Shown: positions 1,209-18,967 of the stretch, piece after piece | Numbering within the stretch: position 1 is the stretch's first letter | Layout of the letters: each line of letters starts with the position of its first letter | Source: Fibrobacterales bacterium | GTDB taxonomy: Bacteria; Fibrobacterota; Fibrobacteria; Fibrobacterales; JAOPTW01 | Length of the DNA stretch: 18,967 nt | NCBI GenBank assembly: GCA_051532055.1 | Contig: JAOPTX010000046.1 | Location: forward strand, 1 to 18,967 | Reading direction: 5' to 3' | Made by a program: the position numbers and the translations under genes | Notes under the pieces: model-generated | What the model was told of the DNA's origin: nothing | The model's database searches: none | The model's input: the letters and a program-made list of their open reading frames with translations, nothing else

Positions 1209-4200
1209 TTCTGTAGAACATTCGATGTTTAAGCTTATCAAGCTGCTCCCTTACTTTCGTAAGGAGTCAAAATATATGGTTACCGTTTCCATTGGAATCA
1301 ATATATTGATGCTTGCAATGCCCATAGCATTGATGCAGGTGTATGATCGTATTATTCCAAATAATTCTATGAGTACCTTGTGGTGGCTTATGATTGGGGT
1401 GGTGACGGCTGTTGTGATCGAGGCAGTGATGCGTATTGTAAGAAATATGATCGGTAACTGGTTGTCGGCGGGGTATGAACATGAGCTTAGTACACGGGCG
1501 GTGAATTCACTGGTAGATATGTCTCATGAAGAGTTTGATGAGGTGGGCCCGGGTGTGCACCTCGAACGATTAAATTCTGTTAAAGTCTTGCGTTCCTACT
1601 TCTCGGGTCAACTCTTTCAGGTGCTCGTTGATCTTCCTTTTGTGTTCTTTTTTATCGGTATTCAAATAATGTTGGGCGGGCTTCTTGTGCTCTATACATT
1701 GTTGTTGGTCGGGCTGTTTTTGGGGCTCGTTTTCTATGCTGCTCGCAAATACGAGATGTATATAAAATTGTATAAGGATATTAATAACCGGCATTTCAAC
1801 TATATTGTAGAAACTATTGGGGGAGTGCATGCTGTAAAATCGATGTCGATGGAAGAGCAGATGTTGCGACGGTATGAAAGTATTCAAGAGAGTTTAACGG
1901 CAATTGAATTAAAAAAGAATTTTTGGAGTAATTTGCCAAAAAATGTTTCTCCAGTCTTGTCGAATATGAACTTGTTGGGGGTGATTTCTTTTGGTGCAGT
2001 TATGGTACTAAAGGGTGAGTTAACTCTTGGGGTGATGACTGCTTGTACTATGGTTGCTACTAGGATTCTTCAGCCAGTAGTACAGGTTGCCTACTTTTGG
2101 ATGAAGAAATCAGAAGCTGAGATAGCGTATGAACAGTATTTACAGCTCTTCTCGAAAGATGAATTTGAGCCTGATGAAGAAATCCCCTTGGTGAATGATA
2201 TTGAGGGGAAAATTACTATTCAAGGTCTTTCAATATTTCAAAATAACCCAGACTATACCTATAGTGGGGAGATAGAAGCCGGGGAGTGTATCTGTATTAT
2301 TGGACGTAACTCGGGGCCTACAACGCAGTTAGTTAAATCACTCTGTGGTATTTTAGAAGTTGATAAAAATACGGTGGTCATAGACGAGTATGACCTCTCT
2401 TACTGGCGGCATAGACATTTTAATGGGCGTATTGAGTATTTGAGTCGAAATGGAAAAATATTTAGAGGGACTATTCTTGATAATATTACCATGTTTTGTC
2501 CTGAAAATTATCTCATTGCACAAGATACCGCTGCACTGGTTGAGCTTGATCAAATGGTTGCAGATCTTCCACTCGGCTACGAAACACCGGTAGATCCCGC
2601 CTCGAACCTAACCTTGCCCCATGGGCTTATCCAGCGTATTTGTATTGCCCGGGCCCTAGTGGTCCGACCACGGATTCTTGTGGTTGATCGAACCATCCAG
2701 GCACTTGACTCTGGTTCGGGTAGAATTCTTATAGATGTCATCCAAAAATTACAAGGGTCATGCACAGTGATTGTTGCATCTGAGACAGTTCCGGTGGGGT
2801 TACATCCTTCAAAGGTGTTGAGCTGTACGGGTGATAGCCTTATTGAGTATAAGTGTGATGCCGGAGAGTTTACTGATGGGACCAATCAAGGTAAAGTGCG
2901 ACAGAAACTGTCACGAGAAGAGCTGCTCAGTGGTGATGTATGGATTCGTTGGATGATGCAGACCGCCACCCGATTTGAAGATATTGAACCAATCCTTCAA
3001 GAGACATCCATTGAGCTTATCGATCATGATCACCGTAAAATAGCACAGTATGCTATTGAGATGAATCTTCTTGTCGGGGAGATTTCCACTACTGTAAATA
3101 AAGGGCTTATTGAGAAACAAAAAATGCTTCTTGAAAACTTTTATGAATTTACACGGGGTCACTTTACGCGTGAAGAGGAGTTTATCGAACGTATGAATCT
3201 CGATGGACTCGATAAACAGAAGAAAGAGCATAGGGAAATACTCACCACTTTTAGTGAAATTATTGAAGACTTCCGTCAGGGACGTTCAAAAATTACGCAT
3301 TCCCTGAAGCTCTCACTTATGGATTGGGTTATTTCTCATATTAATAACCTTGATTACGAGACATTTCGATTACATACTATTATTCCCTTTATTCGAAAGT
3401 TAAAGACTTGGAAAGAGATGTCGTATTTTATCTATTCGACAGGGATTCCCTTTGTTGATACAGACCATGAACGGCTGACTCGATCACTCATCGAACTTGC
3501 ATGTACTATTGGGTCAGAAATGAGACAAAAGGCAAATGTAGAGGTTGAGGATCAGTTTGATCAGTTGTATACGTTGGCTCAAGAAATATTGGATCGTGAA
3601 GAAGCATTTCTCAATACCTATTCGATTGATGTGAATGGTATACATAGAAAGAAACATGAAGAGTTTTTATCGCTTATACAGGAGTGTAAAGAGGGGTACC
3701 AAGAGGGTGAACTTAATAGAGATGGGGTCTATGCGCTGCTTCTTGGAGAGTGGATAGATCATAGTAATGGAAGAGATATGGTGGACTTTTCTATACCACA
3801 TCTGCTTCCCATTGTTCTTTCGGATGCTTCAAAAGAGAGCGACCTCACGTGGATGCTGAGAAAAACAGGTATTGCAGAGATCGATACTCAGCATCTTGAT
3901 GTGATCACTGCCGTGATGAAGACTACCACATTGGATAGCAGTACAATGGATCCTGGTACCCTAGATACAACCCTCAGCGGAATTCTGGCCTTGGTGAAAA
4001 AACACTTTAGCTATGAAGAGAAGTACATGGAATCTATTGGTGAAAGTAGTTTGAAATCACATAAAGAAGAACATCGACATATACTGAGCAGTATTGAAGA
4101 GTATCTCGATAACGTACGAAAAGATCGTATCAAATTTTCCGATCGTTTTAGATTGCGTCTCCTTGATTGGTGGGTTAATCATACCAATGGTACCGACTAC

Positions 4201-4236
4201 CAGACTTTTATTCTTAATCGTGTTGAGGGGGAATAA
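1198..4236 (+). CDS. T1SS ABC transporter subunit (TMD + degenerate NBD) fused to three C-terminal hemerythrin domains
   Basis: PrtD/HlyB-like TMD (INILMLAMPIALMQVYDRII; DLPF; GELTLGVM). NBD with altered motifs (GRNSGPTT, LPHGLIQR, ILVVDR). From about 3001 there are three repeats with the hemerythrin H..HxxxEE..HxxxH..HxxxxD pattern. Start may be 1198 or 1225. Confidence 0.88.
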   Translation: MALNSVEHSMFKLIKLLPYFRKESKYMVTVSIGINILMLAMPIALMQVYDRIIPNNSMSTLWWLMIGVVTAVVIEAVMRIVRNMIGNWLSAGYEHELSTRAVNSLVDMSHEEFDEVGPGVHLERLNSVKVLRSYFSGQLFQVLVDLPFVFFFIGIQIMLGGLLVLYTLLLVGLFLGLVFYAARKYEMYIKLYKDINNRHFNYIVETIGGVHAVKSMSMEEQMLRRYESIQESLTAIELKKNFWSNLPKNVSPVLSNMNLLGVISFGAVMVLKGELTLGVMTACTMVATRILQPVVQVAYFWMKKSEAEIAYEQYLQLFSKDEFEPDEEIPLVNDIEGKITIQGLSIFQNNPDYTYSGEIEAGECICIIGRNSGPTTQLVKSLCGILEVDKNTVVIDEYDLSYWRHRHFNGRIEYLSRNGKIFRGTILDNITMFCPENYLIAQDTAALVELDQMVADLPLGYETPVDPASNLTLPHGLIQRICIARALVVRPRILVVDRTIQALDSGSGRILIDVIQKLQGSCTVIVASETVPVGLHPSKVLSCTGDSLIEYKCDAGEFTDGTNQGKVRQKLSREELLSGDVWIRWMMQTATRFEDIEPILQETSIELIDHDHRKIAQYAIEMNLLVGEISTTVNKGLIEKQKMLLENFYEFTRGHFTREEEFIERMNLDGLDKQKKEHREILTTFSEIIEDFRQGRSKITHSLKLSLMDWVISHINNLDYETFRLHTIIPFIRKLKTWKEMSYFIYSTGIPFVDTDHERLTRSLIELACTIGSEMRQKANVEVEDQFDQLYTLAQEILDREEAFLNTYSIDVNGIHRKKHEEFLSLIQECKEGYQEGELNRDGVYALLLGEWIDHSNGRDMVDFSIPHLLPIVLSDASKESDLTWMLRKTGIAEIDTQHLDVITAVMKTTTLDSSTMDPGTLDTTLSGILALVKKHFSYEEKYMESIGESSLKSHKEEHRHILSSIEEYLDNVRKDRIKFSDRFRLRLLDWWVNHTNGTDYQTFILNRVEGE

Positions 4237-6311
4237 TGAAAGGGTTCGAGCAGGATATACTGGTAAATGAGGCTGCACTATCACAATGCCTTTTGCCATT
4301 TTTAGATGCGCTTGGGTGGGTAGGTAAAGAGAAAACTATACTCGAAGCGCGTCCACATCTCGTCTCTGACTTTGATGTGATTGGATTCTTGAATACTATG
4401 GCGAACTTAGGGTATGAGACCCATGTGCTCAAACGTCAACTCGATAACTTGAGTGATCAACTTTTTCCTCTTATTCACATAGAGTCAAAAGGAAAGCCAC
4501 GGGTGATTCTGAGACGCGAAGATAATGGGATCTTGGTGTATGATGGAGAAGAAGAGAGTTACGAAGTTGTACCTTACATTGATGGTGGTCTCTTTTTACT
4601 CGTACATAAGACGAGTGGGTTACATCGTAAAGTATTTGAACCACAAAAGAATTGGTTTTATCATGTGGGGATGCGTTTTAAGAGTATCGGGTTTGTCGTA
4701 CTCTTTTTATCCTTGCTCTTAGTGCTCCTTGCGTTCTGTATACCCATTATCGTTATGGGGGTTTATGATGTCCTTCTCACGGGTGATTCGGTAGACAGTC
4801 CTATTCTCTTGGGAGTTGGAATTGCGATATTTATTTTGTCAGAGGCGGCTATCAGACTTCTTCGTTATTTTATCATGAACTATGCGGGGTCTCGACTGGG
4901 TAATATTGTCAATAATCAAGTAATGAGGCGAATCTTATACTTACCACCATCCTACACCGAAACCTCATCGGTAGGATCTCAAGTGTCACGTATTCGTGAT
5001 TTTGGTACGGTAAAAGAGTTTATAGAAGGGAATGGAAGCGTTGCAATGATCGAAGCACCTTTTTATATGCTTCTTATTGTTGCCCTTGTATTGCTTGCGG
5101 GTAATCTTGCCTATATACCAGCAATTACTGCGTGTCTTTTTATTTTAATTGGAGTGGTTCTCTCGCCGTTTGTAAAACAGATTAATGAAGAGTCAGCTTC
5201 AAATTCAATAGCAAAACAAGAGTATACTATTGACTTGATTAATAACTTTCACGACATAAAACAGGTGGGGCAGCATGGGCTTTGGAAAAAGCGGTTTCGC
5301 GATTTTTCAGCAGAGGCTTCTTTTTCAAACTATAAAACGGCACAAATAAATGGCGTAATAACGAACCTCTCTCAAATGCTTATAACTATAGCGGGCGCGT
5401 TAACTGTTGGGTTTGGGGCCTATAAAGTTATGAATAATACTCTCACACCAGGGGCACTTGTAGCGGCACTTATTATCGTTTGGCGTATATTGGGCCCCGT
5501 AAAGGCTGCGTTTTCTGTGGGTACTCAGTCTACTCGGTTGCGCAGAAGTATCACTCAGTTAAATCGATTGATGTCCATTAAGATCGAAAAGAATGTACAG
5601 CAAGAGGCGGTGCTCTCACGTTCACTCCGCGGGTCAATTTTTTTTAATAATGTTTCGTTTCGCTATAATAACGAGGCACACCCGGCGTTACTTGGGGTGA
5701 ACCTTGCTATTAAAAAGGGTGAATGTATGGCGTTTACGGGGCATGATGGGTCAGGTAAAAGTTCTATATTTAAGTTGATACTGGGTATGTATAAACCACA
5801 ATCGGGTCGTGTACTCATTGACTCTTTTAATGTACAACAATTAGATCCGATACAGGTGCGTCACTCAATAGGGTACTCTCCAAAAAATGATACCATGTTC
5901 TATGGTACTATTGAACAAAATCTTAAATTGGTTACCCCCGAAGCAACAGAAGATGATATGATTGAAGCGGCAAAGCTGTCTGGATTGTGGAGCGCCATGG
6001 AACAGGATGCCATTACTTTTGGCACCCGTATTGGTGATAACCTTTCTCATGGCGTACGTCCTTCTTATAATAAACTCATAAATTTAACACGTATGTTTCT
6101 CAAGAAAAGCCCTATATTGCTCCTTGATGAACCTGAACAACTTCTCCAAAATGATGAAGTAGAATTTTTAGCAAAAAATATTGCAAAACTCAGGGGAGTG
6201 AAAACAATTCTCCTTATTACCAAGAACCCCATACTATTAAAGGTAGCTCAATCGGTTACGGAATTTGAACGGGGTCGAGTAGTGTCAAACAGTGTGAACA
6301 AACAGGAATAG
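4236..6311 (+). CDS. T1SS ABC transporter subunit (peptidase C39-like N-terminal domain, TMD, NBD)
   Basis: TAATG coupling to the previous gene. N-terminal LSQCLLPFLDALGW C39-like region, TMD, Walker A GHDGSGKS and Walker B ILLLDEP. Signature motif is degenerate. Confidence 0.9.
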   Translation: MKGFEQDILVNEAALSQCLLPFLDALGWVGKEKTILEARPHLVSDFDVIGFLNTMANLGYETHVLKRQLDNLSDQLFPLIHIESKGKPRVILRREDNGILVYDGEEESYEVVPYIDGGLFLLVHKTSGLHRKVFEPQKNWFYHVGMRFKSIGFVVLFLSLLLVLLAFCIPIIVMGVYDVLLTGDSVDSPILLGVGIAIFILSEAAIRLLRYFIMNYAGSRLGNIVNNQVMRRILYLPPSYTETSSVGSQVSRIRDFGTVKEFIEGNGSVAMIEAPFYMLLIVALVLLAGNLAYIPAITACLFILIGVVLSPFVKQINEESASNSIAKQEYTIDLINNFHDIKQVGQHGLWKKRFRDFSAEASFSNYKTAQINGVITNLSQMLITIAGALTVGFGAYKVMNNTLTPGALVAALIIVWRILGPVKAAFSVGTQSTRLRRSITQLNRLMSIKIEKNVQQEAVLSRSLRGSIFFNNVSFRYNNEAHPALLGVNLAIKKGECMAFTGHDGSGKSSIFKLILGMYKPQSGRVLIDSFNVQQLDPIQVRHSIGYSPKNDTMFYGTIEQNLKLVTPEATEDDMIEAAKLSGLWSAMEQDAITFGTRIGDNLSHGVRPSYNKLINLTRMFLKKSPILLLDEPEQLLQNDEVEFLAKNIAKLRGVKTILLITKNPILLKVAQSVTEFERGRVVSNSVNKQE

Positions 6312-6315
6312 TGTG

Positions 6316-7662
6316 ATGAATAATAATCAAAAACTCAATGAAGAGATTGCACGCATTAGAACAGAGAGTAAATTCCTTGCTCGGTCGGTACTTCTCGAAG
6401 AGACCGGAAGTAAACGGTATGTACATATTACTATTTTGGTCTGTAGTTTGTTACTTGTGTCGTTTATAGTGTGGTCTGCCGTGATGGAGGTTGATGAGGT
6501 TGCTATTGCAGAAGGGTCAATAGTACCCAAAGGTGAACTCATTAAAATTCAACATCTATTGGGGGGTAAAGTTTCACGGATACTGGTACGGGAGGGGGAG
6601 TATGTTGAAAAAGATGCGATTGTTATAGAAATTGACCCAGAAAATTCACAATTACTCCTTGGTGAATTAAATGTTGAGTATCAGGAGTTGAAAGCCGCTG
6701 CACTATGGCTTCGTGCACTGATTGATGAAACTAAACCAACTTTTACTCTTGGGGTAGGTGAGTATAGTGAGATTTATAAAGATCAAATGGAACTCTATAC
6801 TCGAAATAAAGCTCAAGATAAATCTGGAGAAAATATTATTGTGCAACAGATTGAACAAGTGAAACTCGAAATAGCGGAATTGAAAAAGAAACAGATAAAG
6901 CTTAAAAAAGATGTTGGTCTTCTTACTAAAGAACATAGAATTCGGAAGAAATTAGTTTCGAAAGGATTGAATTCAAAATTGAGTATCATAACCCTCGAAC
7001 GTGATCTCAATGACGCACAAGGTGAGTTAGCAGAATCGAGACCAAAATTAAAGCGACTCCGTGTACGGCTTAAAGAGTTGCGCACACGGCGTATAGAGTA
7101 TTCGGGGCTGCGGAAAAAACAATATGCCGAAGAATTGACTAAAACAAAAAGCGCACTTTTGATGCTGCAACAAAAACAAGTGTACCTGAGTAGTAATCTT
7201 GATTATTTAAAAATTCGATCCACCGCAAGTGGGTATGTTCACGGTCTTCAGGTAAATGCATCGGGAGAGGTGGTCAATCCTGGTGAGACGCTTTTTCAGA
7301 TTGTACCGGCAGACAGAATTCTGGAGGCGCATTTGAAAATTGCGGCAGCTGACATTGGACACCTTAAAACAGGGCAGTCAGTACTTATTAAATTTAAAAC
7401 ATTCAACTATCGTCGCTATGGTGGGGTCCATGGTGTGTTATCAGAAATATCCAATTCAGCCTTTCTTGATGAAAATGGAAACTCTTTTTATAGGGGTATC
7501 GCACGTTTGAGTGATGACGCAGACAAGTTATCGTTACAGGATAAACAAATTATTCCAGGAATGACCATTACAGCAGATATTAAAACAGGTACTAAAACTG
7601 TTCTAGAATATTTGCTTCGTCCACTCTATAGCTCTACCGAAACAGCATTTTCTGAACGGTAA
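6316..7662 (+). CDS. HlyD-family T1SS membrane fusion protein
   Basis: Single N-terminal TM helix, IQHLLGGKVSRILVREGEYV lipoyl-like half, long coiled coil, C-terminal IIPGMTITADIKTGTKTVLEYLLRP...FSER. AGGA SD precedes ATG 6316 (GTG 6313 is an alternative). Confidence 0.93.
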   Translation: MNNNQKLNEEIARIRTESKFLARSVLLEETGSKRYVHITILVCSLLLVSFIVWSAVMEVDEVAIAEGSIVPKGELIKIQHLLGGKVSRILVREGEYVEKDAIVIEIDPENSQLLLGELNVEYQELKAAALWLRALIDETKPTFTLGVGEYSEIYKDQMELYTRNKAQDKSGENIIVQQIEQVKLEIAELKKKQIKLKKDVGLLTKEHRIRKKLVSKGLNSKLSIITLERDLNDAQGELAESRPKLKRLRVRLKELRTRRIEYSGLRKKQYAEELTKTKSALLMLQQKQVYLSSNLDYLKIRSTASGYVHGLQVNASGEVVNPGETLFQIVPADRILEAHLKIAAADIGHLKTGQSVLIKFKTFNYRRYGGVHGVLSEISNSAFLDENGNSFYRGIARLSDDADKLSLQDKQIIPGMTITADIKTGTKTVLEYLLRPLYSSTETAFSER

Positions 7663-7668
7663 TAGCAG

Positions 7669-9252
7669 TTAAGGCAAGAGACTGAAATCTTCTTGATTGC
7701 GCCATTTTCCATTTTCACCTTCGGTAATTGGGTCATCAGAAATAATGTTACCCCTATGGCCGTTTCCAGATGCATCTTCAATTTGGTCGGGTTTTGTTGA
7801 GTCATACTTAAATTCGTAACTGAGTACCAGACGTCGAGTTTCTTCAATGTGTGCTGTCGTTTGGAAACGGCTTGCAGCAATTTGATCTGCAGTACGAGCA
7901 GTATTCCAGATGCGTATATTATCCATCTGTCCGCGAAAGCCACTATCAATATTTTCGGTGCTGGTACCAATATAATTTACGGTACGAATGGTATCGATAG
8001 GAAGAGCGTCGAGCCCCCCTTCAGTCGATGGTTGCGGTTCACCGTTTACGTAGAATGTTATAAGCCCTGTTGGTGTTACGGTAACCGCCAGGTGGTTCCA
8101 TTCATCTAATTTAAAGGCGTCATTCATATGTGCATCGGTCAAGTCATTATTGGTTATTCCTCTCTCGGTATTAGACACTGCATATTTGAGTAAGTTGTTT
8201 CCGTTATCGTGTACTGCTCCAAAAATAATCATGTGTTTTCGGGTTGGGCCATTTGAGAGATGAATCATATGAGTGGTTGTTTGAATTTCATCCCATAAAA
8301 CCCAGAGCTCCATGGTGATGCCCTCAGAAGACCAATTGTAATCAATAGGATTTTGAATGCTCACGTAGTCGGGGTCGCTGTGTATGTGAAAAGTCTTTGT
8401 TGAATCGATTGTGCTTTGACTCGATGAACCAAGGTTCATCGTAGAAGAAGAACTTTGCAGGACGACCTCAGAAGAAGAGAGCATTGTACTACTCGATGAA
8501 ATAATTATTTCTGTTGAAGATGAGCCTGGGGTAATAGGGATGCTACTCGATGATGAGTGAGCCTCGTAGAGAATATCGATGGGAATTATCAAGTCGCTTT
8601 CGAAGGTAAGAGTTTCATTGGGAATAATAGTCATACTGTCTAGTGTGAGCTTGGTACTTTTGAGTGAGAATGGCTGGGCCCAGTATACTGAGGTATAGAC
8701 TCCGGGGGGGACGTGGGTAAATAGTACCCTAAAGGTTGCACTATCGGTATTGGTGTAGGCTCTTTCACCTTGTGCAACCATTGTGGTGTTTTCAATATAG
8801 AGCTTACCGAGTTCTGGTGATCGCCCCAGCGAAGAAAGAGGGAGAGTTATGACCACTGCCCCTGTAGCTTTGAGGGTATCAGTGAGGTTAAGCTGTGCGT
8901 CCGGAGTATAGGTGATTTCTTTTTTATAGAGTCCGGTTGACTTTGTCTCGTTAATGGTTTGAAGGCTATAAGTCCCTGAGGTTATATTCGTAAATTGATA
9001 GCGCCCCATATCATCGGTTTCTGTTTGTTGTTTGGTAACAAGGGTACTATCGTGAATTGGGTTATATGAATTAGGAAAAATCACTACTGCAGCATAGGAT
9101 TCGGGTTCACCTTCTGGGGTGTAGAGCGTTCCTGCAATGTAGCCTCCTGTTTCAACATCGGAAGCGCCTGCAAGTTGGTTGTCCGGATTTGAGCAACTGG
9201 TGAGCACCCAAAATAGTAAGAGTGATAGTAGATACATTGATTGATTATACAT
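7669..9252 (-). CDS. Lipoprotein with carboxypeptidase-regulatory-like/prealbumin-fold domain, Ser-rich linker and C-terminal LamG/ConA-like domain
   Basis: Signal peptide with lipobox LTSC after the ATG at 9252 (or 9237). AGASDVETGG..IAGTL..TDDMGRYQF; poly-Ser linker; ITMELWV..WNHLAVT..FYVNG..FRGQMDNIRIWN LamG motifs. The ORF-track start at 9453 overlaps the upstream gene and is unlikely. Confidence 0.8.
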   Translation of the reverse strand: MYNQSMYLLSLLLFWVLTSCSNPDNQLAGASDVETGGYIAGTLYTPEGEPESYAAVVIFPNSYNPIHDSTLVTKQQTETDDMGRYQFTNITSGTYSLQTINETKSTGLYKKEITYTPDAQLNLTDTLKATGAVVITLPLSSLGRSPELGKLYIENTTMVAQGERAYTNTDSATFRVLFTHVPPGVYTSVYWAQPFSLKSTKLTLDSMTIIPNETLTFESDLIIPIDILYEAHSSSSSIPITPGSSSTEIIISSSSTMLSSSEVVLQSSSSTMNLGSSSQSTIDSTKTFHIHSDPDYVSIQNPIDYNWSSEGITMELWVLWDEIQTTTHMIHLSNGPTRKHMIIFGAVHDNGNNLLKYAVSNTERGITNNDLTDAHMNDAFKLDEWNHLAVTVTPTGLITFYVNGEPQPSTEGGLDALPIDTIRTVNYIGTSTENIDSGFRGQMDNIRIWNTARTADQIAASRFQTTAHIEETRRLVLSYEFKYDSTKPDQIEDASGNGHRGNIISDDPITEGENGKWRNQEDFSLLP

Positions 9253-9260
9253 ACGTGCGC

Positions 9261-10091
9261 CTAGCCTTCCAAAGTATTGGAGAGGGGGAAAAAATTGATA
9301 TTGAGCATATACACTTGTTCGGGATTCTGATCGTTGACGGCGAGTTTCATAAGGCGAGATCGGCAGTCGCGAATGATGTCGATATAGCTCTTGTAGCTTT
9401 CTTTTGAAAATGAGAGTGTGGTTGCAGAGGAGAGTCGTTTCTTGGGTTTCCAACGGTCAAATGCGGTAATTGCCATTTGTAACATCTCTACTTGATAGTT
9501 AATCACTTGGTGCGCCCCTAAATTACTGGTTTGCTTGGCATTGAGCAGGGGTTCTGTTTGTTGGTATGTGCCCTCTATTCGTTTTAAAAAGCCGAGCTTT
9601 ATCAGAAGTACAACAGATGCTTTTGCTTGCTTCGCACTAATAGCAGGTTTTAGAAATTTTCCGAGGAGCCCATAATCTTCTTTAAAGTCTAAAAGGGTGA
9701 CTGCCTCGCGTATTGCACTGTGATACCATGCAGAGAAGTACTCATACTGCTCTTCGGAGATGGTTTTTACATGGCGCATTTTTTGTTTTTCAATCATCTT
9801 TTCAAAAAAAACATTTTGGGCTTTAACGGATTTAGCTTGATTAAAGGATACTAGGTTTTCAAAATATTCGGCTTCATCGTCATCAAGTCCAAAGGCGATA
9901 CAGGTTTTAAGAATGGTCTCTTTCGTAAGGTTTCTTTTTCCTTTAATTACTTGGGGATAAAAAGATGATGAGTTGATATCTGCTTTTTGTGCATAGTAAC
10001 GGTATGAGAAGGTGCGGTTTTGTGCCGACTTCATCGCTTGAAGATCACTTAAATATTTTCGGTAGTCCGAATAGTCATATACTGAAATCAT
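9261..10091 (-). CDS. TIGR02147 family protein (N-terminal HTH, DUF4423-like C-terminus), putative regulator
   Basis: Typical family pattern YDYSDYRKYL..FSYRYYAQKA..SSSF..VIKGKRNLT..YFENLVSFNQAK..YFSAWYHSAIRE..VYMLNINFFPLS; 276 aa. Confidence 0.9.
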   Translation of the reverse strand: MISVYDYSDYRKYLSDLQAMKSAQNRTFSYRYYAQKADINSSSFYPQVIKGKRNLTKETILKTCIAFGLDDDEAEYFENLVSFNQAKSVKAQNVFFEKMIEKQKMRHVKTISEEQYEYFSAWYHSAIREAVTLLDFKEDYGLLGKFLKPAISAKQAKASVVLLIKLGFLKRIEGTYQQTEPLLNAKQTSNLGAHQVINYQVEMLQMAITAFDRWKPKKRLSSATTLSFSKESYKSYIDIIRDCRSRLMKLAVNDQNPEQVYMLNINFFPLSNTLEG

Positions 10092-10263
10092 GTGTGTCTC
10101 GCTTATATCGCTCTTACTGGTATATGGTGGATAATAATATTAATCCCTTAATAATATACTCAGTTTTTGGTCTAAAAGATCATTCTAGGGCGTTTTTTAT
10201 CGAAGTGGTAGTTTTTTGTGTAATCACCTTGCTCGGGTCCTTGAATGCATTCAAAACAGAGTT

Positions 10264-10301
10264 AAAAAAATAGATAGGAGCGCTAACTCTCTATCTATTT
10301 T
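10264..10301 (-). terminator. Intrinsic terminator-like hairpin downstream of the small ORF (possibly bidirectional)
   Basis: AAAATAGATAG-GAG cgctaa CTC-t-CTATCTATTTT (10267-10301). The A7 at 10264-10270 gives a U-tract on the minus strand. A second small IR, AGTACTAA/TTAGTACT, lies at 10303-10324. Confidence 0.65.
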
Positions 10302-10346
10302 GAGTACTAATGGGGGTTAGTACTATGAAAGTCTTATGTAGGATGG

Positions 10347-10445
10347 TTATACGGCAGTAAGGAACCCTGCATAGGATACTACAAGTGTTACCAGAGCTAC
10401 AAATGAGTATTGTGCGAGGTCGATAAGTATTTCGTGATATTTCAT
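10347..10445 (-). CDS. Small 32-aa hydrophobic membrane peptide (MKYHEILIDLAQYSFVALVTLVVSYAGFLTAV)
   Basis: Manually translated; below the ORF-track cutoff. SD AAAAGGGAG 7 nt before ATG, a hydrophobic C-terminal stretch of about 20 aa, and a downstream terminator hairpin. Confidence 0.6.
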   Translation of the reverse strand: MKYHEILIDLAQYSFVALVTLVVSYAGFLTAV

Positions 10446-10588
10446 GGTGTTACTCCCTTTTGTCACAGGTTTGGTGTTTTAGCGTCTTTGTGTATGTGTA
10501 CCTGTGTGTACTTGTTCCCGTTCTCTTACCTTAAGTTAAATTCAGAAAGGAGTGAGTGAACAAAAATTGAATATTTTTAGTTCATTTG

Positions 10589-10670
10589 TGGTTACAGATG
10601 TAATCAGTAAACTTATGTAAACAGTCAAAAAGGCTATTTTAAACAAATTTGGTCAAAAACATGTAATCAC
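10589..10670. promoter_or_regulatory. Cluster of TGTAAYCA-like boxes, candidate transcription factor operator
   Basis: Palindrome TGGTTACA-GA-TGTAATCA (10589-10606), TGTAAACA (10616-10623), TGTAATCAC (10662-10670). Another TGTAATCAC is at 10219-10227. Confidence 0.45.
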
Positions 10671-10731
10671 TTGGGTGGGTGTAGGCGTGTATTTCTGTTA
10701 TGGACAAATGACAGTAAGTGTCGTACACTGA

Positions 10732-11958
10732 ATGAAATCTATCTTACTAGAGTTATCTGTGTCTGAGTTAGAACATGGCCATATGAAATACACCGGTATC
10801 AACTCACTCCGATTGGTAGTAATGATTTTTGTCGTTATTTTTACTTTCGACCATGAGTATCTGTTATATAAATCTATCTGTATTGGTAATCTTGTCTTTT
10901 CCGCTCTTTGGTTGATTGCCGAAGAGTTTCGCTATATTGATGTATCTAAATATCCTCGACTCTCTTGGGTAGCAACGTCGTCAGATTTGATAATGGTTGC
11001 CTTGGTATTTTTTATGACGGGAACGGTTAACTCATTTATAAATATTGGCTTTCTGTTAGTTACTGCCGTCTGTTGTCTTAATTTAAAAACGGGTCAGGGC
11101 CTTTTTTCTGCAATTGTATCGATACTCTTCTATGTTTCAATATCTCTAATGGTCCTACTTGGCTTATTTCCAGACATCAATATACTCGGTGCAGAGAATG
11201 GAGTGACACTTCAGGCTTTCTTGATCTCTTCGGTATTGTTTACGGCAGCGAATATTGCTGTGTACCTCTTGGTGACTGAATTGATGAAACGAAATAAAAA
11301 TCTATATCTTGAAGTAGAAGATCAGAAACATAAAAATGAAGAGTTGCTTCTTAATATACTTCCCTATAGTACGGTTAAAGAGCTACAACTCTATGGTCGC
11401 TCAATCCCCCGTAAAGTAAATCAGGCAACAATCTTCTTTTCTGACTTTGTCAATTTTACCAATATATCAAAAGGAATGCTTGCCGAAGACCTGGTAGATA
11501 AACTCGACGGCTTTTTTACGTTTTTTGATAAAACCTTAGAGCAATATCAGATTGAAAAATTAAAGACGATCGGTGATGGATATATGGCGGTATCGGGGGT
11601 GTTGGGTGACTATAAACAGCAGGCAGTAAATATGTGTAATGCGGCATTGGATATTCTTGAATATATGAAGATTCATGAACTGGATGATAAAAATGTGTGG
11701 AACGTACGTATTGGGATTAATACCGGTCAAGTGATTGCAGGCATTATAGGGAAATCAAAATTTTCGTACGATGTATGGGGTCAGGCGGTTAATTTGGCAG
11801 CGAGGCTCGAGAGTGCGAGTGAATCAGGCAAGATCAATATTTCTCAAGAGACTTATGCACTGACAAAAGATGTTTTTGAATATGAGTATCGTGGTAAAAT
11901 CAGTGTTAAGGGTATTGAGGGGGTTGATATGTATTATTTGGTTGGGAGGAAGGAGTAA
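10732..11958 (+). CDS. Membrane-bound class III adenylate/guanylate cyclase (probably adenylate cyclase)
   Basis: Multiple N-terminal TM helices; EELLLNILP; IFFSDFVNFT; EKLKTIGDGYM; RIGINTG..GIIG..KFSYDVWGQAVNLAARLES. The K and D substrate-specifying residues indicate ATP. Confidence 0.93.
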   Translation: MKSILLELSVSELEHGHMKYTGINSLRLVVMIFVVIFTFDHEYLLYKSICIGNLVFSALWLIAEEFRYIDVSKYPRLSWVATSSDLIMVALVFFMTGTVNSFINIGFLLVTAVCCLNLKTGQGLFSAIVSILFYVSISLMVLLGLFPDINILGAENGVTLQAFLISSVLFTAANIAVYLLVTELMKRNKNLYLEVEDQKHKNEELLLNILPYSTVKELQLYGRSIPRKVNQATIFFSDFVNFTNISKGMLAEDLVDKLDGFFTFFDKTLEQYQIEKLKTIGDGYMAVSGVLGDYKQQAVNMCNAALDILEYMKIHELDDKNVWNVRIGINTGQVIAGIIGKSKFSYDVWGQAVNLAARLESASESGKINISQETYALTKDVFEYEYRGKISVKGIEGVDMYYLVGRKE

Positions 11959-12262
11959 GGTGCAAGGTGCAGGACGCGCACCTCACTAATTGAGTAATAA
12001 TCTTTTAGATTACTCTAATGTGTTCTAAAACTGGAGCATATTTCTGGATGTGAATGGATTAGAGTTTTTCTGGTATATAATAAAGGGCACTTTTAGGCCG
12101 TTTAAGGTGCTTTTAGAGGGTTTTCAAAAAGAAGAACGGTTTGAGTACAACTTCGGTGCGATTTTAGAACGGTATCTGGTGCGCCTCTGTGTTGGGAGTG
12201 TGTCCTCTTTTCTCAATAAGGTATCCTTGTGTTATTAAACAACAACACTTTAAGGACTCTCT

Positions 12263-14017
<1,755 letters not shown>

Positions 14018-14086
14018 TAATCCGGTATTTATCTACTTGATTCAATCAGTGTAGGTTTTGCGTGACTGGTTACTCAGCAAAGAAAA

Positions 14087-14123
14087 TATGAAAAGGACCT
14101 GTACTGTGCAGGTTCTTTTCATA
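14087..14123. terminator. Hairpin between convergent FISUMP and integrase genes, probable (bidirectional) terminator
   Basis: TATGAAAAGGACCTGTAC / GTGCAGGTTCTTTTCATA inverted repeat. Both mismatches are G:U pairs on the + strand. Confidence 0.65.
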
Positions 14124-14353
14124 GTGGAGTGCGTTGTGTCAGAGCGGTATCTAGACAGCTTTATTTGTGTTGCTTATTGATTTATGGATTAACTATAAGC
14201 TTTATTGCGAATAAGTAGTGAGGGCCATATTTATGTTGTTGTAGATGAGGGACACTACTATGAGATGGCTAAAGAAGATGAAAGCGTCAGACTAACAGGC
14301 AAAAGTGCCAAACGAACATACAATAGTAGGTGCTGAGCTCATTTGAGAAATAA

Positions 14354-15448
14354 CTACAGTAGAGAGGGAAGGTGACTTAACGACTCCTGAGCTACCTTTG
14401 TATAGCGGGTGGTAGTGTTTATATCACTATGACCCATCAGTTTTTGAATATAACGCAGATCAACCCCTTTTTCGAGAAGATGTGTCGCAAAGCTATGACG
14501 GAAGGTGTGAGGAGAAACAGTCTTGGTAATGGACGTTTTAGATGTGGCCTTTTTTACGATGGCGGCGATAGTTCTCGGAGAGAGCCCGCCACCTCGTTCA
14601 CTGGTAAATAAGTGATCACCGGGTTCCCGCTCACTGATCATTGAATTAATGTCACTACAGAGGCTAGGAGGGATTATGACAATTCGATCCTTTTGCCCTT
14701 TAGCGTTTTTGAGATGAATACTTCGTATTTGAAGATCTAAATCCTTGATCAGCAGGTTGCACACCTCTGAAACCCTCATACCTGTGGCATACATCAGGGA
14801 TATGGCCATATGGTGTTTGGTGTTTTTGATTTTACTTAAGATCTCTTGTACTTCTTGAGGATTGAGAACAACCGGCAGATGCTTAGTTCGACGAGGACGA
14901 TGGTGCAGTACGAAATCAAATGGTCTCTTGAGAGAGTGAATATAGAGAACTTTTAACGCTGAGATTGTGATGTTGATGGTAGAGCCTTTGTAGCGTTTTT
15001 CTTCTATTAAGTAGTGTAGGAATGCTTCGATTTTTTCGTTATCAATCTTATTAAAGGAGTAGCCCAAATAAGTGTCGAGCATTTGTAGATTACTGATATA
15101 GTTTGTGATGGTGCATTGACTATAATTTTGGCGAGTAAGTGCTTTGGTGACTGCTTTGAAATGCTTTTGGTTGATTGATTGTTCTTGTACTTCGACCGTC
15201 GGGTATATGTTATTAAAGAAGTATAAAATGATATACCGCACGTACTTTGCATCAGAATCTTTTAATTGTTCTCGAAGCTCAATATAAGTGTTCACCACAT
15301 TGATTGTGAGTTCATCTTGAGTCTCTGACCATTTAAGGAATTGCTCAATAAGTTTTGTATGATATTTAATAACGGTTTCAGTTTTATTTTGAGTTTTTAG
15401 GTATTGCTCTAGTGCGGTAAGGTAGTCTGTCATGGTGTATAGTTCCAT
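14354..15448 (-). CDS. Tyrosine recombinase (integron-like integrase lacking the IntI-specific insertion)
   Basis: Complete catalytic set: GMRVSE (R), AKGQKDR (K), HTFRHSFATHLLE (H-x-x-R), LMGHS (H), TTRYT (Y). Also has KHLPVVL and SAM-like N-terminal domain(s). Divergent from the cassette array. Confidence 0.92.
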   Translation of the reverse strand: MELYTMTDYLTALEQYLKTQNKTETVIKYHTKLIEQFLKWSETQDELTINVVNTYIELREQLKDSDAKYVRYIILYFFNNIYPTVEVQEQSINQKHFKAVTKALTRQNYSQCTITNYISNLQMLDTYLGYSFNKIDNEKIEAFLHYLIEEKRYKGSTINITISALKVLYIHSLKRPFDFVLHHRPRRTKHLPVVLNPQEVQEILSKIKNTKHHMAISLMYATGMRVSEVCNLLIKDLDLQIRSIHLKNAKGQKDRIVIIPPSLCSDINSMISEREPGDHLFTSERGGGLSPRTIAAIVKKATSKTSITKTVSPHTFRHSFATHLLEKGVDLRYIQKLMGHSDINTTTRYTKVAQESLSHLPSLL

Positions 15449-15505
15449 TGAAATATAGTTAGACGCAACTCAGCATTCTTATGGGACAGTTATTTTTAAA
15501 TAGTT

Positions 15506-15636
15506 CCTACATCTCCGGTTTTTATAGAGAAGTAGGCAATGTCTGACATACTTTAGCGGAATATCTGGAGAAGTACGCAATACCTACTTCTTGGTGTTGT
15601 GGTGGAGAGTTGGCAGTATTGCGTACTCTTTTAGTT
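15506..15636 (+). promoter_or_regulatory. attI-like region with repeated candidate recombinase/regulator binding sites ending at the GTT crossover core
   Basis: Direct repeat GAGAAGTA(G/C)GCAAT at 15527-15540 and 15568-15581. Inverted copies CCTACATCTC (15506-15515) and CCTACTTCT (15583-15591). Perfect 12-bp IR AGTACGCAATAC/GTATTGCGTACT (15572-15583/15616-15627). GTT at 15634. Confidence 0.55.
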
Positions 15637-15751
15637 GAGGCTAATTACAAAGGGCAGGAAACATCGCTCAGTATAATTAAAATGTCACATTATATGATAT
15701 CAATGTTTATTACTATTATTATACATATAAGAAAAACACCGAGGGTATATT

Positions 15752-16711
15752 GTGAAGGCAGTATTTTCATATCCAACAAAATTTTGGATTGAGAACACAA
15801 GTGAAAATAAATTTGATCTTAATTCTCAATTTGCTATAAATGATATCCAGTGTTCGTTGACCTTAAAAACAAATCAGGTTTCCGATATTAAGAATGAAGA
15901 TGGTTCAATTAAATATTTTTATTGTAATTGTTATTTGTTACAAATGGAATTGCAAAAAGAAGGTGTCATATGGGAAGAATTGTCCAAAGAAAAGGTATAT
16001 TCGATAGTATATAATATGATATCTGAGGTCATAAAATATTTGAGATCAATAGGCTTAACCAAGCACATTAGGGTGCCTGTTTATAATAAAAAATATTCTG
16101 AATATTATTTAGATAAATGGGAGTTTAATTATTCAGCAGATGAGCAATTGATACCTTTAATTTCTAAATCAGGGATTATTCCTATAGGTCTTCACACTGA
16201 TACTCCAAATACTGAGTTTAATGGCGAACTAAAAGTAAATCAATGGGATGCTATAGACAATGCGCTGAAAAATCAAGACAAACCACCAATTCAAAATGAA
16301 TTTATAGTTCGTGCCTTGGAGTATTTAGAAAAAGAAGATTTAAGATCTAGCATCATAGAGGCAACTATAGCACTTGAAATTGTAGTTTCAAGTTATCTCA
16401 CTAAGCAGCTAGAAAGTAGGGAATTTGCTAATGAAAAGATTAAAAATTTCTTAAAGCCTACTCTGGATCTGCATTCAAGAGTCAGTGTGCTAATTAGCTT
16501 GTTTGCACCCAAAATTGTTCTTGATCATTTGAATTTTACTAATGTTTTGACTTGTATTAAATGGCGGAATAATATTATCCATAAAACAGGAGATTTACCT
16601 GAGGGAATAAATACTGAGGAATCAAAGGATAAAATATTTTCAATGATCTCAATGGTATTTTATTTGGATACTGCTATTGAAATGAAAACAGAAACTAAAC
16701 TAGTGGAATGA
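15752..16711 (+). CDS. HEPN-motif protein (ApeA/HEPN-like putative RNase)
   Basis: GTG start with GAGGG SD. C-terminal helical domain with SIIEATIALE and the RxxxxH motif WRNNIIH. Confidence 0.6.
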   Translation: MKAVFSYPTKFWIENTSENKFDLNSQFAINDIQCSLTLKTNQVSDIKNEDGSIKYFYCNCYLLQMELQKEGVIWEELSKEKVYSIVYNMISEVIKYLRSIGLTKHIRVPVYNKKYSEYYLDKWEFNYSADEQLIPLISKSGIIPIGLHTDTPNTEFNGELKVNQWDAIDNALKNQDKPPIQNEFIVRALEYLEKEDLRSSIIEATIALEIVVSSYLTKQLESREFANEKIKNFLKPTLDLHSRVSVLISLFAPKIVLDHLNFTNVLTCIKWRNNIIHKTGDLPEGINTEESKDKIFSMISMVFYLDTAIEMKTETKLVE

Positions 16712-17637
16712 ACCAAATGATGGAAGAAGAAAGAGAAAGGACTGGAGTCCAAGGTTGGAAACAGTTTTTGTCAAATAAAAAAGTTTTATTGGATCATTTT
16801 GACAGAGCAAAAGAAAAAGATCAAATTCATAAGGTACAAACATATCGAGGTGTGGTAGCTGAAGAAGAATTTAGGAAATGGTTATCAGAATTTCTTCCCA
16901 AAAAATACGCTGTTACATCTGGATATATTATATCCCAAAATGTATCTGAAGATATAAAGGCTCCACATTATGATGTAATTATTTACGATTATCTAAATTC
17001 TCCTATTTTGTGGTGTGATGATCACTCAGGGGCATCAAGTAATGGTAAATCGAGGGCTATTCCAGCCGAACATGTTATGGCTGTATTAGAAGTAAAATCA
17101 AAACTTAATTCAACAACTGTTAAAGATTCGATTAATCATTTATCTGAATTGAGCTCCTTATGCCCAACCTCGGATCAGCAAACAGATAGGTATAACAGTT
17201 ATTTACCAAGCCATTTCTTTTGTGGAATCATTTGTTATGAGTTGATTAAGCAGGATGAGTATAGCATTGCAATTTTTGAAAATATGCTTAGGGACGAAAA
17301 AGAGGTGCCCGATGGTTTTTTTGGAGTATTAATTTTAAGAGGAGAAGGGCTGCCAATAAATTGTACTGGTAAAATTGACCTTTTAGTAGGAACAACTAAT
17401 ATAAAGTGTTCAATAAAAAAAGATGAGATTTCACTTCTTAGTAAACATTCTGCAAAATTAAGTAATTCAGTAAAATACAAAAACAAGTTTATGTGTGCTA
17501 TGTTAGATTGGAATGAAGCTGTATTTTCTCAATTTGCTTTTGATTTGATTGCAAGATTGACAGGTGATTATAGGCCTGGCTATGCTTCAAGTATGCATGC
17601 GATGAACTGGGTGAAGCCTAAAAATAAAATTGATTAA
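16708..17637 (+). CDS. DUF6602-like PD-(D/E)XK nuclease-fold protein
   Basis: ATGA overlap with the upstream gene. GVVAEEEFRKWLSEFLPKKYAVTSGYII..YDVIIYD..IPAEHVMAVLEVKSKL is the DUF6602-type E..D..EVK pattern. Confidence 0.72.
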   Translation: MNQMMEEERERTGVQGWKQFLSNKKVLLDHFDRAKEKDQIHKVQTYRGVVAEEEFRKWLSEFLPKKYAVTSGYIISQNVSEDIKAPHYDVIIYDYLNSPILWCDDHSGASSNGKSRAIPAEHVMAVLEVKSKLNSTTVKDSINHLSELSSLCPTSDQQTDRYNSYLPSHFFCGIICYELIKQDEYSIAIFENMLRDEKEVPDGFFGVLILRGEGLPINCTGKIDLLVGTTNIKCSIKKDEISLLSKHSAKLSNSVKYKNKFMCAMLDWNEAVFSQFAFDLIARLTGDYRPGYASSMHAMNWVKPKNKID

Positions 17638-17709
17638 CTCCTACCAGAGTGAAGCAATTCATAAATATATTTAAAATATTAAAAGACTATTTAGAGATAG
17701 AATGCGATA

Positions 17710-17797
17710 GCCCTTTGTAACTAGCCTCAACAGCGTGAGCATGCAATTATTCCCCTAAAGATGGGAATAACTGCATACTGGCACACAAACGTTGTCA
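17710..17797 (+). other. attC-like recombination site 1
   Basis: AAC (17729-17731) ... GTT (17791-17793) enclosing the imperfect hairpin GCGTG-AGC-ATGCAATTATTCCC [CTAAAGAT] GGGAATAACTGCAT-ACT-gg-CACAC, with two extrahelical bases and an unpaired spacer. Confidence 0.75.
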
Positions 17798-17912
17798 CAA
17801 ATTATTTGGAGTAGAGAGGCTTTACTTTTGTAGATACTTTTTAAAGAAAAGTAATATGAGGAATTGGTTTTCTATATTTTTAAAATTATGATATAACAAA
17901 TGTAGGGATTTC

Positions 17913-18842
17913 GTGATTTGTAATAAATTGATTCTAATGTTAATTGCTCTAATCTGTATATGCGCCTCCATTTCATTTTCTCAAGAAGCAATTGATTCTG
18001 AATACTATAATATCGATTCAATCATTAAAAGGCAAAATCTAACCCTTACAAGTATTAAGGCAAAAACTCCTACTATTAAATGCTCAAAAAAAGAAGAGAG
18101 TAACTTTTGGATTACTGGATTAATCTTGCCATTTTTGGTTACTGTAGGAGCTTCTATGACTATTCTAATTATAAATAAAATTAATACCACCAGAGCAGAA
18201 ATTCAAAAGAAATTATATACTTTGAACTATATGATGAATGCTTGCGACAAAATTCTACACGCTGAATTAATTGTATTAAATCATACTATAAATCCTCATT
18301 TAGATGCTACACAACAGATATTGAAAGGTAATTCTGAATTGAAACATACAATGTTTGTATCTGGTGAGTTTAATATATTAACAGATAAGCCTATTAGCTT
18401 TTCTGGTATAACAGAAGAAAACAAAACACTTGTTGGGTATGACAAAATTGGTGTAATTCATTCTTATGATGTTTTAATTCACAATTTAACGAATGATAAT
18501 GATAGGATTGCATTGAATAAATTTGTTGAAAATTGTTTATCTAGTGAATTAGCCTTTGATCAATATTTACCTGAAGTACAAAAAGATTTATTGAATCAAT
18601 ATTGGGATCACCTTGATAGAATAAAACATAATTCTGAACGAAACATATTTTTTATACACTATATAATCACACGGTTTGTAATGGATTATTTGAAGGACAA
18701 ACAATTTAAGTCATATAAAAAAGATGAAATTTATAATACTATTCATCAAACTAAATTATTAGCTAACCAATACAAAGATCTTATACCAGATGCTGATTTC
18801 ATGGAAAAAGTGAAAAACGGTGGTATTCAAAATGCTATTTAA
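17913..18842 (+). CDS. Hypothetical membrane protein (signal-peptide-like N-terminus, second TM helix, soluble helical C-terminal domain)
   Basis: 309-aa ORF with GTG start and AGGGA SD. Hydrophobic segments LILMLIALICICASISFS and FWITGLILPFLVTVGASMTILII. No family recognised. Confidence 0.7.
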   Translation: MICNKLILMLIALICICASISFSQEAIDSEYYNIDSIIKRQNLTLTSIKAKTPTIKCSKKEESNFWITGLILPFLVTVGASMTILIINKINTTRAEIQKKLYTLNYMMNACDKILHAELIVLNHTINPHLDATQQILKGNSELKHTMFVSGEFNILTDKPISFSGITEENKTLVGYDKIGVIHSYDVLIHNLTNDNDRIALNKFVENCLSSELAFDQYLPEVQKDLLNQYWDHLDRIKHNSERNIFFIHYIITRFVMDYLKDKQFKSYKKDEIYNTIHQTKLLANQYKDLIPDADFMEKVKNGGIQNAI

Positions 18843-18860
18843 TCCAAAGCATGTAGCGTA

Positions 18861-18967
18861 ACTCCAAATAACTCGTGACAACAGCCGAAGCACGCAAGCT
18901 TTTTTCTATGCACTGAAGTGCAAAAAGCCTGCGTACGTTCGTCGGACTTCACCCGAAAAGTCAAGCA
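18861..18967 (+). other. attC-like recombination site 2 (probably incomplete)
   Basis: AAC at 18880-18882, then stem ACGCAAGCTTTT..TGCACT-GA-AGTGCA-AAAAGCCTGCGT. Shares CAACAGCnnnAGCAYGCAA and CTGCRTAC with attC-like site 1. Confidence 0.65.

Follow-up and report, generated by a model that had tools for sequence, protein, structure and literature searches.

We analysed an 18,967-nt stretch of DNA from a Fibrobacterales bacterium (assembly GCA_051532055.1, contig JAOPTX010000046.1, positions 1 to 18,967 of the forward strand; hereafter the window, meaning the whole of this stretch), in which a tyrosine recombinase, P0001, is encoded beside an attI-like spacer and two gene cassettes, each followed by a hairpin of the attC type. 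Judged from its sequence, the window contains the part of an integron-type array of gene cassettes that lies next to the integrase, and P0001, which does not carry the insertion specific to IntI integrases, is probably the array's own integrase (we put the probability at about 0.58). Integrons are defined, and found by software, by way of this insertion, which is taken to permit the recombination of folded single-stranded attC sites; the reading proposed here for P0001 would contradict that working definition and is directly testable. A first-pass annotation of the same DNA had suggested a gene-capture platform run by a different clade of recombinases. Sequence comparison supports this suggestion, and none of the tests made of it turned out against it.

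The cassette array in the window

The array and its recombinase gene comprise the following features:

14354–15448, minus strand: tyrosine recombinase P0001, an intact open reading frame (ORF) of 364 aa, XerA-like, without the IntI insertion and with an extra N-terminal four-helix domain
15449–15635, plus strand: attI-like spacer, the 187 nt upstream of the P0001 start codon, ending in TAGTTG as does the spacer of the ortholog in G156, a genome of the same genus
15463–15469: GTTAGAC box in the attI-like spacer
15636–17731, plus strand: cassette 1, whose GTTG start arm (15636–15657) and CAAC end arm (17710–17731) are mutual reverse complements
15752–16711, plus strand: cassette 1 ORF of 319 aa, no family match
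16708–17637, plus strand: cassette 1 ORF of 309 aa, DUF6602 (PF20247, 7.4e-22), overlapping the 319-aa ORF
17725–17797, bottom (minus) strand folded: attC site 1, a divergent type A site from R'' CCTCAAC to R' GTTGTCA, 67 bits
17791–18882, plus strand: cassette 2, with start arm 17791–17812, end arm 18861–18882 and a terminal inverted repeat of 22 nt (91%)
17913–18842, plus strand: cassette 2 ORF of 309 aa, no family match
18876–18947, plus strand: attC site 2, type A consensus form, complete as far as the base that precedes the expected R' GTT, 72.7 bits
18948–18967, plus strand: end of an IS110-family element inserted in attC site 2

The first-pass annotation had described a complete tyrosine recombinase gene divergent from a repeat-rich spacer. 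This is borne out by the intact reading frame, by the intact catalytic residues of its product (see below) and by the repeats of the spacer, since within 15449–15751 two 25-nt direct repeats (15516–15540 and 15557–15581, 76%) are accompanied by an inverted copy near 15618–15629. It had further described two co-oriented AT-rich units running from GTTG to CAAC and followed by related hairpins; all of this is seen in the sequence, except that the first unit contains two ORFs and not one. Cassette 1 is bounded by a terminal inverted repeat of 38 nt (15618–15655 and 17710–17747, 79%), and each cassette is followed by an imperfect hairpin of 60–70 nt, the two hairpins being related to one another (67–73 bits with the covariance model presented below). 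The guanine-plus-cytosine fraction is 0.28–0.34 over positions 15001–18500 versus 0.35–0.48 upstream. A scan of positions 14000–18967 against Rfam yielded nothing below an E-value of 0.29.

Comparison within the order was based on a sample of 157 genomes for the recombinase and 151 for the type A sites. Orthologs of P0001 were found in two of the 157, namely this genome and G156 (56% amino acid identity), and one further genome contains a match at 37%. The 14 kb upstream of P0001 are collinear with G156 at 80–96% amino acid identity and the recombinase gene occupies the same position, and nothing similar follows it: the cassettes of the two genomes are unrelated. Gene content across relatives, which the first-pass annotation had proposed to compare, therefore differs at this locus, and the variability of cassette content between related genomes that characterizes integrons is observed here. 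In G156 the TAGTTG that closes the spacer is about 185 nt away from the start codon, and in this genome the first GTTG lies 188 nt from it; the TAGTTG junction thus provides in both species the fixed G|TT beside the integrase gene that is expected of attI, a role which we regard as putative. Cassettes and a type A site (97.7 bits) are found beyond the G156 spacer. An attI site is recognised by no integrase other than the cognate one, according to PMC2095811, and the conserved distance between the insertion point and P0001 is counted in favour of P0001 as the integrase.

Two short motifs of the spacer deserve separate mention. The 9-mer AGTTAGACG, which comprises a perfect GTTRRRY box, occurs by the P0001 start codon (15463–15469), in the spacer of the G156 ortholog (L021, position ~80) and in the attI region of a canonical IntI encoded on contig C108 of this genome (position ~9440); it might be a common regulatory or secondary recombination site. 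Between 15569 and 15629 the spacer holds GTACGCAAT and its inverse ATTGCGTAC, which resemble the conserved type A stem motifs CACGCAAG and CTGCGTAC and may represent a binding motif common to the spacer and the type A stem; comparison of the two spacers revealed that this motif is not conserved in that of G156.

Concerning the cassette content, the DUF6602 protein of cassette 1 also matches the PADLOC models PD_DExK (PD-(D/E)xK, 1.1e-19) and NucC effector (3.5e-17), and this two-gene unit may be an anti-phage defence cassette. Anti-phage defence cassettes have reportedly been proposed for sedentary integrons in a preprint of 2024. At the other end of the array, attC site 2 is interrupted at 18947/18948 by the IS110-family element, and the contig therefore ends there. 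The same element is found in five different type A sites, that of the window and those at the contig ends of C72, C122, C141 and C153, and its insertion point is identical in every one of them, directly before the expected R' GTT. The transposase, as encoded on C122, has 434 aa and contains the DEDD_Tnp_IS110 and Transposase_20 domains. This arrangement resembles the published IS1111-attC group.

Family assignment of the recombinase

A family scan of P0001 reveals the domains PF00589 (Phage_integrase, 2.3e-43) and PF13495 (SAM-like core-binding). The catalytic set R225, K250, H314, R317, H340 and Y349 is complete, and it is invariant both in the four-member clade to which P0001 belongs and in an alignment of 60 sequences. 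The AlphaFold model obtained with a 60-row alignment (mean predicted local distance difference test score 89.7) is predicted to consist of the two usual domains preceded by a confident four-helix domain (residues 1–84), and a Foldseek search with this model gave XerA (top match 5hxy) and IntI4 as the best hits. The best family match is NF040815, the XerA type, which NCBI names 'site-specific tyrosine recombinase/integron integrase' and whose curated cut-off is passed (230.2 bits, cut-off 220). XerA also leads among the solved structures (4a8e, 136.9 bits; 5hxy, 134.5 bits), followed by 2a3v (VchIntIA) with 111.8 bits. No paralogue of P0001 is present in its own genome.

That P0001 might after all score as a true IntI had been raised in the first-pass annotation. 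It reaches 183.6 bits with the integron integrase profile TIGR02249 (cut-off 265), in two stretches that leave profile positions 180–237 unmatched, and 138 bits with PRK15417 (cut-off 435). The IntI-specific segment had been reported absent from a distance of about 60 aa between KDR and HTFRH; the distance is 59 aa, and residues 271–294 of P0001 face residues 181–247 of 2a3v, so that P0001 lacks about 43 aa of the IntI insertion. When P0001 is aligned with three canonical IntIs, a gap is present at the insertion, as against 2a3v, and the additional domain specific to IntI (about 35 aa near patch III, with the I2 helix) was not found in P0001. The protein is not a true IntI.

Nor is P0001 the housekeeping XerC or XerD, nearly universal proteins of about 300 aa and the other identity that had been envisaged, because its scores with both profiles are low (XerD, 196 bits, cut-off 329.6; XerC, 179.5 bits, cut-off 335), the genome contains a separate XerD-like gene (311 bits; 302 bits with PRK00283, cut-off 279) and a separate XerC-like gene (264 bits), and orthologs occur in only 2 of the 157 genomes. 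XerA itself is a chromosome-dimer resolvase acting at dif. P0001 resembles the archaeal-type XerA (NF040815; 4a8e, 5hxy) in its best family and structural matches and in the lack of the insertion; unlike XerA, it has about 95 extra N-terminal residues, occurs in only 2 of the 157 genomes of its order, coexists with XerC- and XerD-like genes and lies beside a cassette array. Context, rarity and the presence of the XerC/D-like genes argue against a role in dimer resolution at dif.

Phylogenetic analysis places P0001 outside the IntI clade. In a 70-row tree the IntI clade (Shimodaira–Hasegawa-like approximate likelihood ratio test, SH-aLRT, 100) leaves out the P0001 clade (SH-aLRT 100, four members), which is found within an unresolved XerA-like radiation, and a 94-row tree concurs, the P0001 clade being outside an IntI clade with SH-aLRT 98. 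When P0001 and IntI were forced into one clade, the approximately unbiased (AU) test gave p-AU 0.417, and a sister relationship is thus not rejected. As the trees exclude it while p-AU is 0.417, P0001 is placed by these analyses outside crown IntI, possibly as its sister. The P0001 clade consists of four known proteins, the other close members including P0003 (71%) and P0004 (55%). Scanning the contigs of species-representative genomes yielded no relative closer than 44%, and a metagenome scan with P0001 yielded 52 loci, among which only short fragments exceed 45% identity, and no new members of this close clade.

Another protein of this genome, of 401 aa and encoded beside efp (C44:9986–11191; L121:3987–5192), matches the integron-integrase profile with 193.6 bits, below the cut-off. 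The match forms one continuous stretch (profile positions 6–298). In the tree this protein is placed within the IntI clade, on a long branch, and a third integrase that has degenerated is a possible reading of it.

The type A attC sites and the second platform of the genome

The hairpin of attC site 2 has about 20 further matches in the genome at 84–98% identity, and a profile search with the type A hairpin returned 37 rows. With a covariance model built from 25 copies, at least 31 copies were identified on about 15 contigs of this genome; the further AAC–hairpin–GTT units which the first-pass annotation had suggested looking for are thus found, on other contigs. Type A sites are present on C3, C45, C47, C72, C75, C83, C89, C100, C103, C115, C116, C136 and C153. 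On small contigs (C45, C89, C100, C103, C115 and others) the copies are spaced 1–4 kb apart in one orientation, and many of these contigs end in a type A copy, as is usual where an assembly is broken by an array rich in repeats. The consensus is ordered as follows: the arm specific to the cassette, CAAC, an unpaired stretch, a bulged stem, the loop, the return stem, a second stretch without pairing, GTTG and the arm of the next cassette. Of the features typical of attC sites, the RYYYAAC and GTTRRRY boxes are observed, with only CAAC and GTTG conserved within the 7-mers, and so are the unpaired spacer, bases that are extrahelical and a bias towards the bottom strand.

Analysis of the 25 sites over 18 pairs reveals that bottom-strand pairing holds in 96.9% of the cells, versus 84.7% in column shuffles (none of 500 as high), and controls with slid partners gave 44–55%. 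Compensatory double changes occur at seven pairs and amount to 50 cells versus 15 in the shuffles. At three pairs a G.T wobble is formed on the bottom strand only (invariant at two of them, in 23 of 25 sites at the third), the top strand having A.C mismatches instead, and the bottom strand is the more stable one in 24 of the 25 sites (mean −16.1 vs. −12.0 kcal/mol). Covariation and strand asymmetry fit a site that is used as a folded single strand, which is how attC sites behave according to the available parts of PMC2727003 and PMC3458562.

The position of the crossover was analysed on 17 intervals between consecutive type A sites. Compared with the end arm of its own interval, the start arm has a mean score of 8.3, against −0.9 with the ends of other intervals and −0.8 for the arms across one junction. 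The own end arm ranked first in 10 of the 17 intervals; the failures are mostly long intervals, which probably hold undetected sites. At position 11 of the start arm, an A in place of G recurs in seven cases and gives rise to an extra bottom-strand G.T pair in the outer stem. Moreover, an attC site that two contigs have in common, together with the upstream cassette end, is identical through GTTG and divergent directly after it, and the cassette start GTTGGTGGACATAGGAATGGGCAG is found after the attI-like spacer in G156 and after attC sites in this genome. Arm complementarity, divergence after GTTG and the two contexts of GTTGGTGGACATAGGAATGGGCAG suggest that the exchange takes place at or beside G|TTG. 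The two halves of a long outer stem (~22 bp) belong to one and the same cassette, as expected for circular intermediates. A megablast comparison among the array contigs yielded a single common cassette piece (C89 8025–8380 and C100 10101–10457), so that cassette mobility within the genome rests on one case.

Based on these data, a mechanism can be proposed in which the substrates of P0001 would be the attI-like site next to its own gene and the type A family, the type A sites acting as folded bottom-strand hairpins with a crossover at G|TTG. Cassettes would move as circles, each carrying the two halves of the ~22-bp outer stem, and P0001 would work without the I2 insertion, perhaps recognising its sites by means of the long outer stem and of its extra N-terminal domain. 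We infer here catalysis by P0001, the single-stranded substrate and the exact cleavage point. A different mechanism, in which P0001 runs the array in the way of conventional Xer-like enzymes, on duplex DNA and without a folded single strand, by two strand exchanges at palindromic double-stranded sites, would agree with its closeness to XerA (4a8e and 5hxy, the latter also by Foldseek) and with the outer stem as a potential duplex arm of about 22 bp, as well as with the absence of the domain that is tied to the single-strand pathway in the available part of PMC4792948. We regard this as quite improbable: attI and attC have only about TAGTTG/CGTTG in common at the crossover, too little for a homologous overlap, the stems vary with compensating changes and are not conserved in the manner of protein-binding sites, and one strand is favoured by the G.T wobbles as well as by folding energy.

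Two further observations concern type A arrays and sites. A hairpin of about 57 nt with TATAAC...GTTATA ends is found inside type A arrays, between two ORFs (L021:690–755 in G156; C3:135169–135234; C153:723–776). This hairpin may represent another attC type of small size, in which case the arrays would contain more than one family, or else a relic. Type A sites also occur, singly or in pairs, away from the arrays, inside long chromosomal contigs (C3:131676–134483, C47:69989–70068, C75:19269–19341, and C11 of G156), and may be cassettes inserted at secondary sites.

This genome also encodes, on C108, a canonical IntI with the insertion present (372.6 bits with TIGR02249), and G156 encodes one as well (286.8 bits); within the order, the TIGR02249 cut-off is exceeded in 6 of the 157 genomes. 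The C108 IntI has its own attI and its own cassettes, which are bounded by a different family of 125-nt TAAC/GTTA sites. This family is found on C108, C30, C31, C32, C74, C130 and C157, and type A sites on none of these contigs; on C108, the best hit of the type A covariance model has 11.3 bits (E 1.4). The sole overlap concerns C3, where a 48-nt partial match of the 125-nt family lies 92 kb away from the type A sites. Going by this distribution of sites, two platforms, with two types of integrase and two attC families, coexist in this genome without mixing.

Insertion-less recombinases beside attC arrays in other phyla

Species-representative genomes were scanned with the alignment of the four clade members, which yielded 80 loci with recombinases 31–44% identical. 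A self-repeat screen flagged 14 of the 80 loci, and reading by eye identified 12 of these as attC-type arrays directly beside the recombinase, with up to 16 attC-type sites in 10 kb at a spacing of ~600 bp. Six are from Flavobacteriia (Winogradskyella, Xanthomarina, Maribacter, two Flavobacterium and Wocania) and six from Planctomycetota (two Novipirellula, Aureliella, two Rhodopirellula and Allorhodopirellula). As for the other flagged loci, L077 was rejected for having repeats that are not attC-like, and the Myxococcota locus L079 is uncertain and was not counted. At 15 more loci of the Bacteroidota clade a contig edge lies at most 750 nt from the gene, as repeat arrays would cause.

Nine of the 12 recombinases were scored: the XerA profile is the best match in all nine, and TIGR02249 remains below its cut-off, matching in two stretches in eight cases and in one stretch in L075. 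The insertion gap is seen in all five array-adjacent recombinases that were aligned. In the 94-row tree the array-associated recombinases fall into three separate lineages. In Aureliella and Rhodopirellula gene and array diverge, and in Novipirellula and the Flavobacteriia the gene is co-oriented with an array downstream of it; the window, unlike these latter, has the usual divergent layout. In known systems in which a recombinase is followed by co-oriented cassettes, the integrases are canonical IntIs with the insertion. TIGR02249 exceeded its cut-off in none of the six Flavobacteriia genomes with such loci, genomes whose completeness is not given. In Novipirellula herctigrandis, an array of its own, built from a different family, accompanies the canonical IntI, and the other family has no BLAST match there, so the pattern of two systems is met again. 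In the Planctomycetota arrays the strand bias in minimum free energy was not seen (bottom strand better in 7 of 15, 11 of 15 and 4 of 8 sites), and covariation was detected in only 1 of 20 pairs because the sites are too conserved.

The recurrence of the pairing in other phyla strengthens the inference made for P0001. These similar pairings suggest a second, overlooked kind of gene-capture system. In its general form, the claim would be that integron-type capture is not exclusive to IntI, and that XerA-like recombinases which never possessed the I2 insertion, or manage without it, serve as dedicated integrases of attC arrays in at least Fibrobacterota, Flavobacteriia and Planctomycetota, usually with extra N- or C-terminal domains, and as the sole integrase in Flavobacteriia; we put this forward tentatively, at somewhat less than even odds.

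The same recurrence bears on the idea that the array is an inactive relic, P0001 being the integrase of another element or an unrelated Xer paralogue that is adjacent by accident. Such a history would account for P0001 diverging faster than its neighbours (56% vs. 80–96%), for the invasion of attC sites by an insertion sequence and for the rarity of the clade, with 4 proteins known and none above 45% in the metagenome scan. It is scarcely probable given that the catalytic residues are intact in all four clade members, that cassette content differs between two species at the same site, that the adjacency recurs in three phyla and that covariation reveals selection on the hairpins.

Several observations weigh against P0001 as the integrase. 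The additional domain is said to have been found necessary for IntI activity by Messier and Roy in 2001. It is also tied to IntI activity and to the single-strand pathway in the available part of PMC4792948, and tyrosine recombinases without intI_Cterm near attC sites were, in Cury et al. 2016 (PMC4889954), always beside fewer than three sites and judged not to be IntI. Both genomes with a P0001 ortholog encode a canonical IntI, and its presence in the same genome weakens the inference; canonical IntIs or fragments of them were also found in all six Planctomycetota genomes examined. The architecture of the type A sites is otherwise canonical. In G156 the array beside the ortholog is short, comprising a single type A site plus a small TAAC/GTTA hairpin. 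Type A sites are present in 2 of the 151 genomes, the same two that encode the P0001 orthologs; this co-occurrence speaks for P0001, but it is weak and not independent because it concerns one genus only. Finally, the assembled contigs of the one public run found to contain this DNA held no usable excision joints; four joints with sides of 26–31 nt in that run were rejected as excision, being explained by other cassettes with the same arm or attC sequence.

The leading alternative builds on some of these points. According to it, the cassettes are ordinary and are moved in trans by the canonical IntI of C108, P0001 being a bystander beside a cluster of attC sites without an integron integrase (CALIN) or having another role. 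The canonical IntIs of the two genomes (372.6 and 286.8 bits) and the reported need for the additional domain favour it, as do the canonical R box, the unpaired spacer and the L stem of the type A sites. As IntIs accept varied attC sites, according to the available part of PMC2095811, the C108 enzyme could possibly act on type A sites too. We consider this unlikely, however, because in two species the distance between the P0001 gene and the insertion point is conserved and attI is cognate-specific, because the two attC families are never found in one array, and because no canonical IntI was found in the six Flavobacteriia genomes with the same pairing. The assignment of P0001 as the array's own integrase is thus preferred.

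Under this assignment, the window shares several traits with sedentary chromosomal integrons such as the Vibrio cholerae superintegron (IntIA/IntI4, Vibrio cholerae repeat attC sites; 2a3v): an integrase gene divergent from attI, with cassettes of one orientation behind it, attC hairpins that are homogeneous and specific to the species and have AAC...GTT R boxes, a spacer left unpaired and a bias towards the bottom strand, as well as variable cassette content, copies that break the assembly and some defence-like cassettes. It differs from them in a recombinase without the ~40-aa IntI insertion, outside the IntI clade and with an extra N-terminal four-helix domain, and in cassettes whose own-end complementarity extends ~22 nt past GTT, with a recurrent A/C mismatch (bottom-strand G.T) at position 11. 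On the other hand, the pdif or Xer modules of Acinetobacter plasmids are gene modules bounded by inverted sites, with Xer-type recombinases and 28-bp dif-like duplex sites; the units of the window, unlike these, are separated by covarying hairpins of 70–80 nt and form a one-directional array with a dedicated recombinase. Under the intI_Cterm requirement of IntegronFinder as given in the available part of PMC4889954, with TIGR02249 below cut-off as a proxy for intI_Cterm, the array would probably be classified as a CALIN, from which it differs by a complete, conserved recombinase in the integrase position, by an attI-like junction and by related loci with 15–16 sites.

Full-text literature searches, which covered few subscription journals and no supplements, turned up no account of recombinases that lack the insertion and serve cassette arrays. 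The available part of a paper on archaeal integrons uses the additional domain as a defining trait (PMC9668308), and in that of IntegronFinder 2.0 the only complete integron in Bacteroidetes proper is that of Salinibacter (PMC9024848). If cassette arrays are run by a recombinase that lacks the insertion, the census of integrons is incomplete: Flavobacteriia, reported to be nearly without complete integrons, would have them, and many orphan attC clusters or CALINs would be complete systems that gain an integrase. The insertion would be no prerequisite for the recombination of folded attC sites and the structural rule of attC recognition would need revision, and the step from Xer-like enzymes to IntI would become testable by means of living intermediates or parallels. 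Such enzymes might serve as new structure-specific recombinases.

As a last observation on the recombinases of this search, those of the Planctomycetota arrays (L072, L075, L085 and L088) possess a conserved C-terminal extension of about 120 aa past the catalytic tyrosine.

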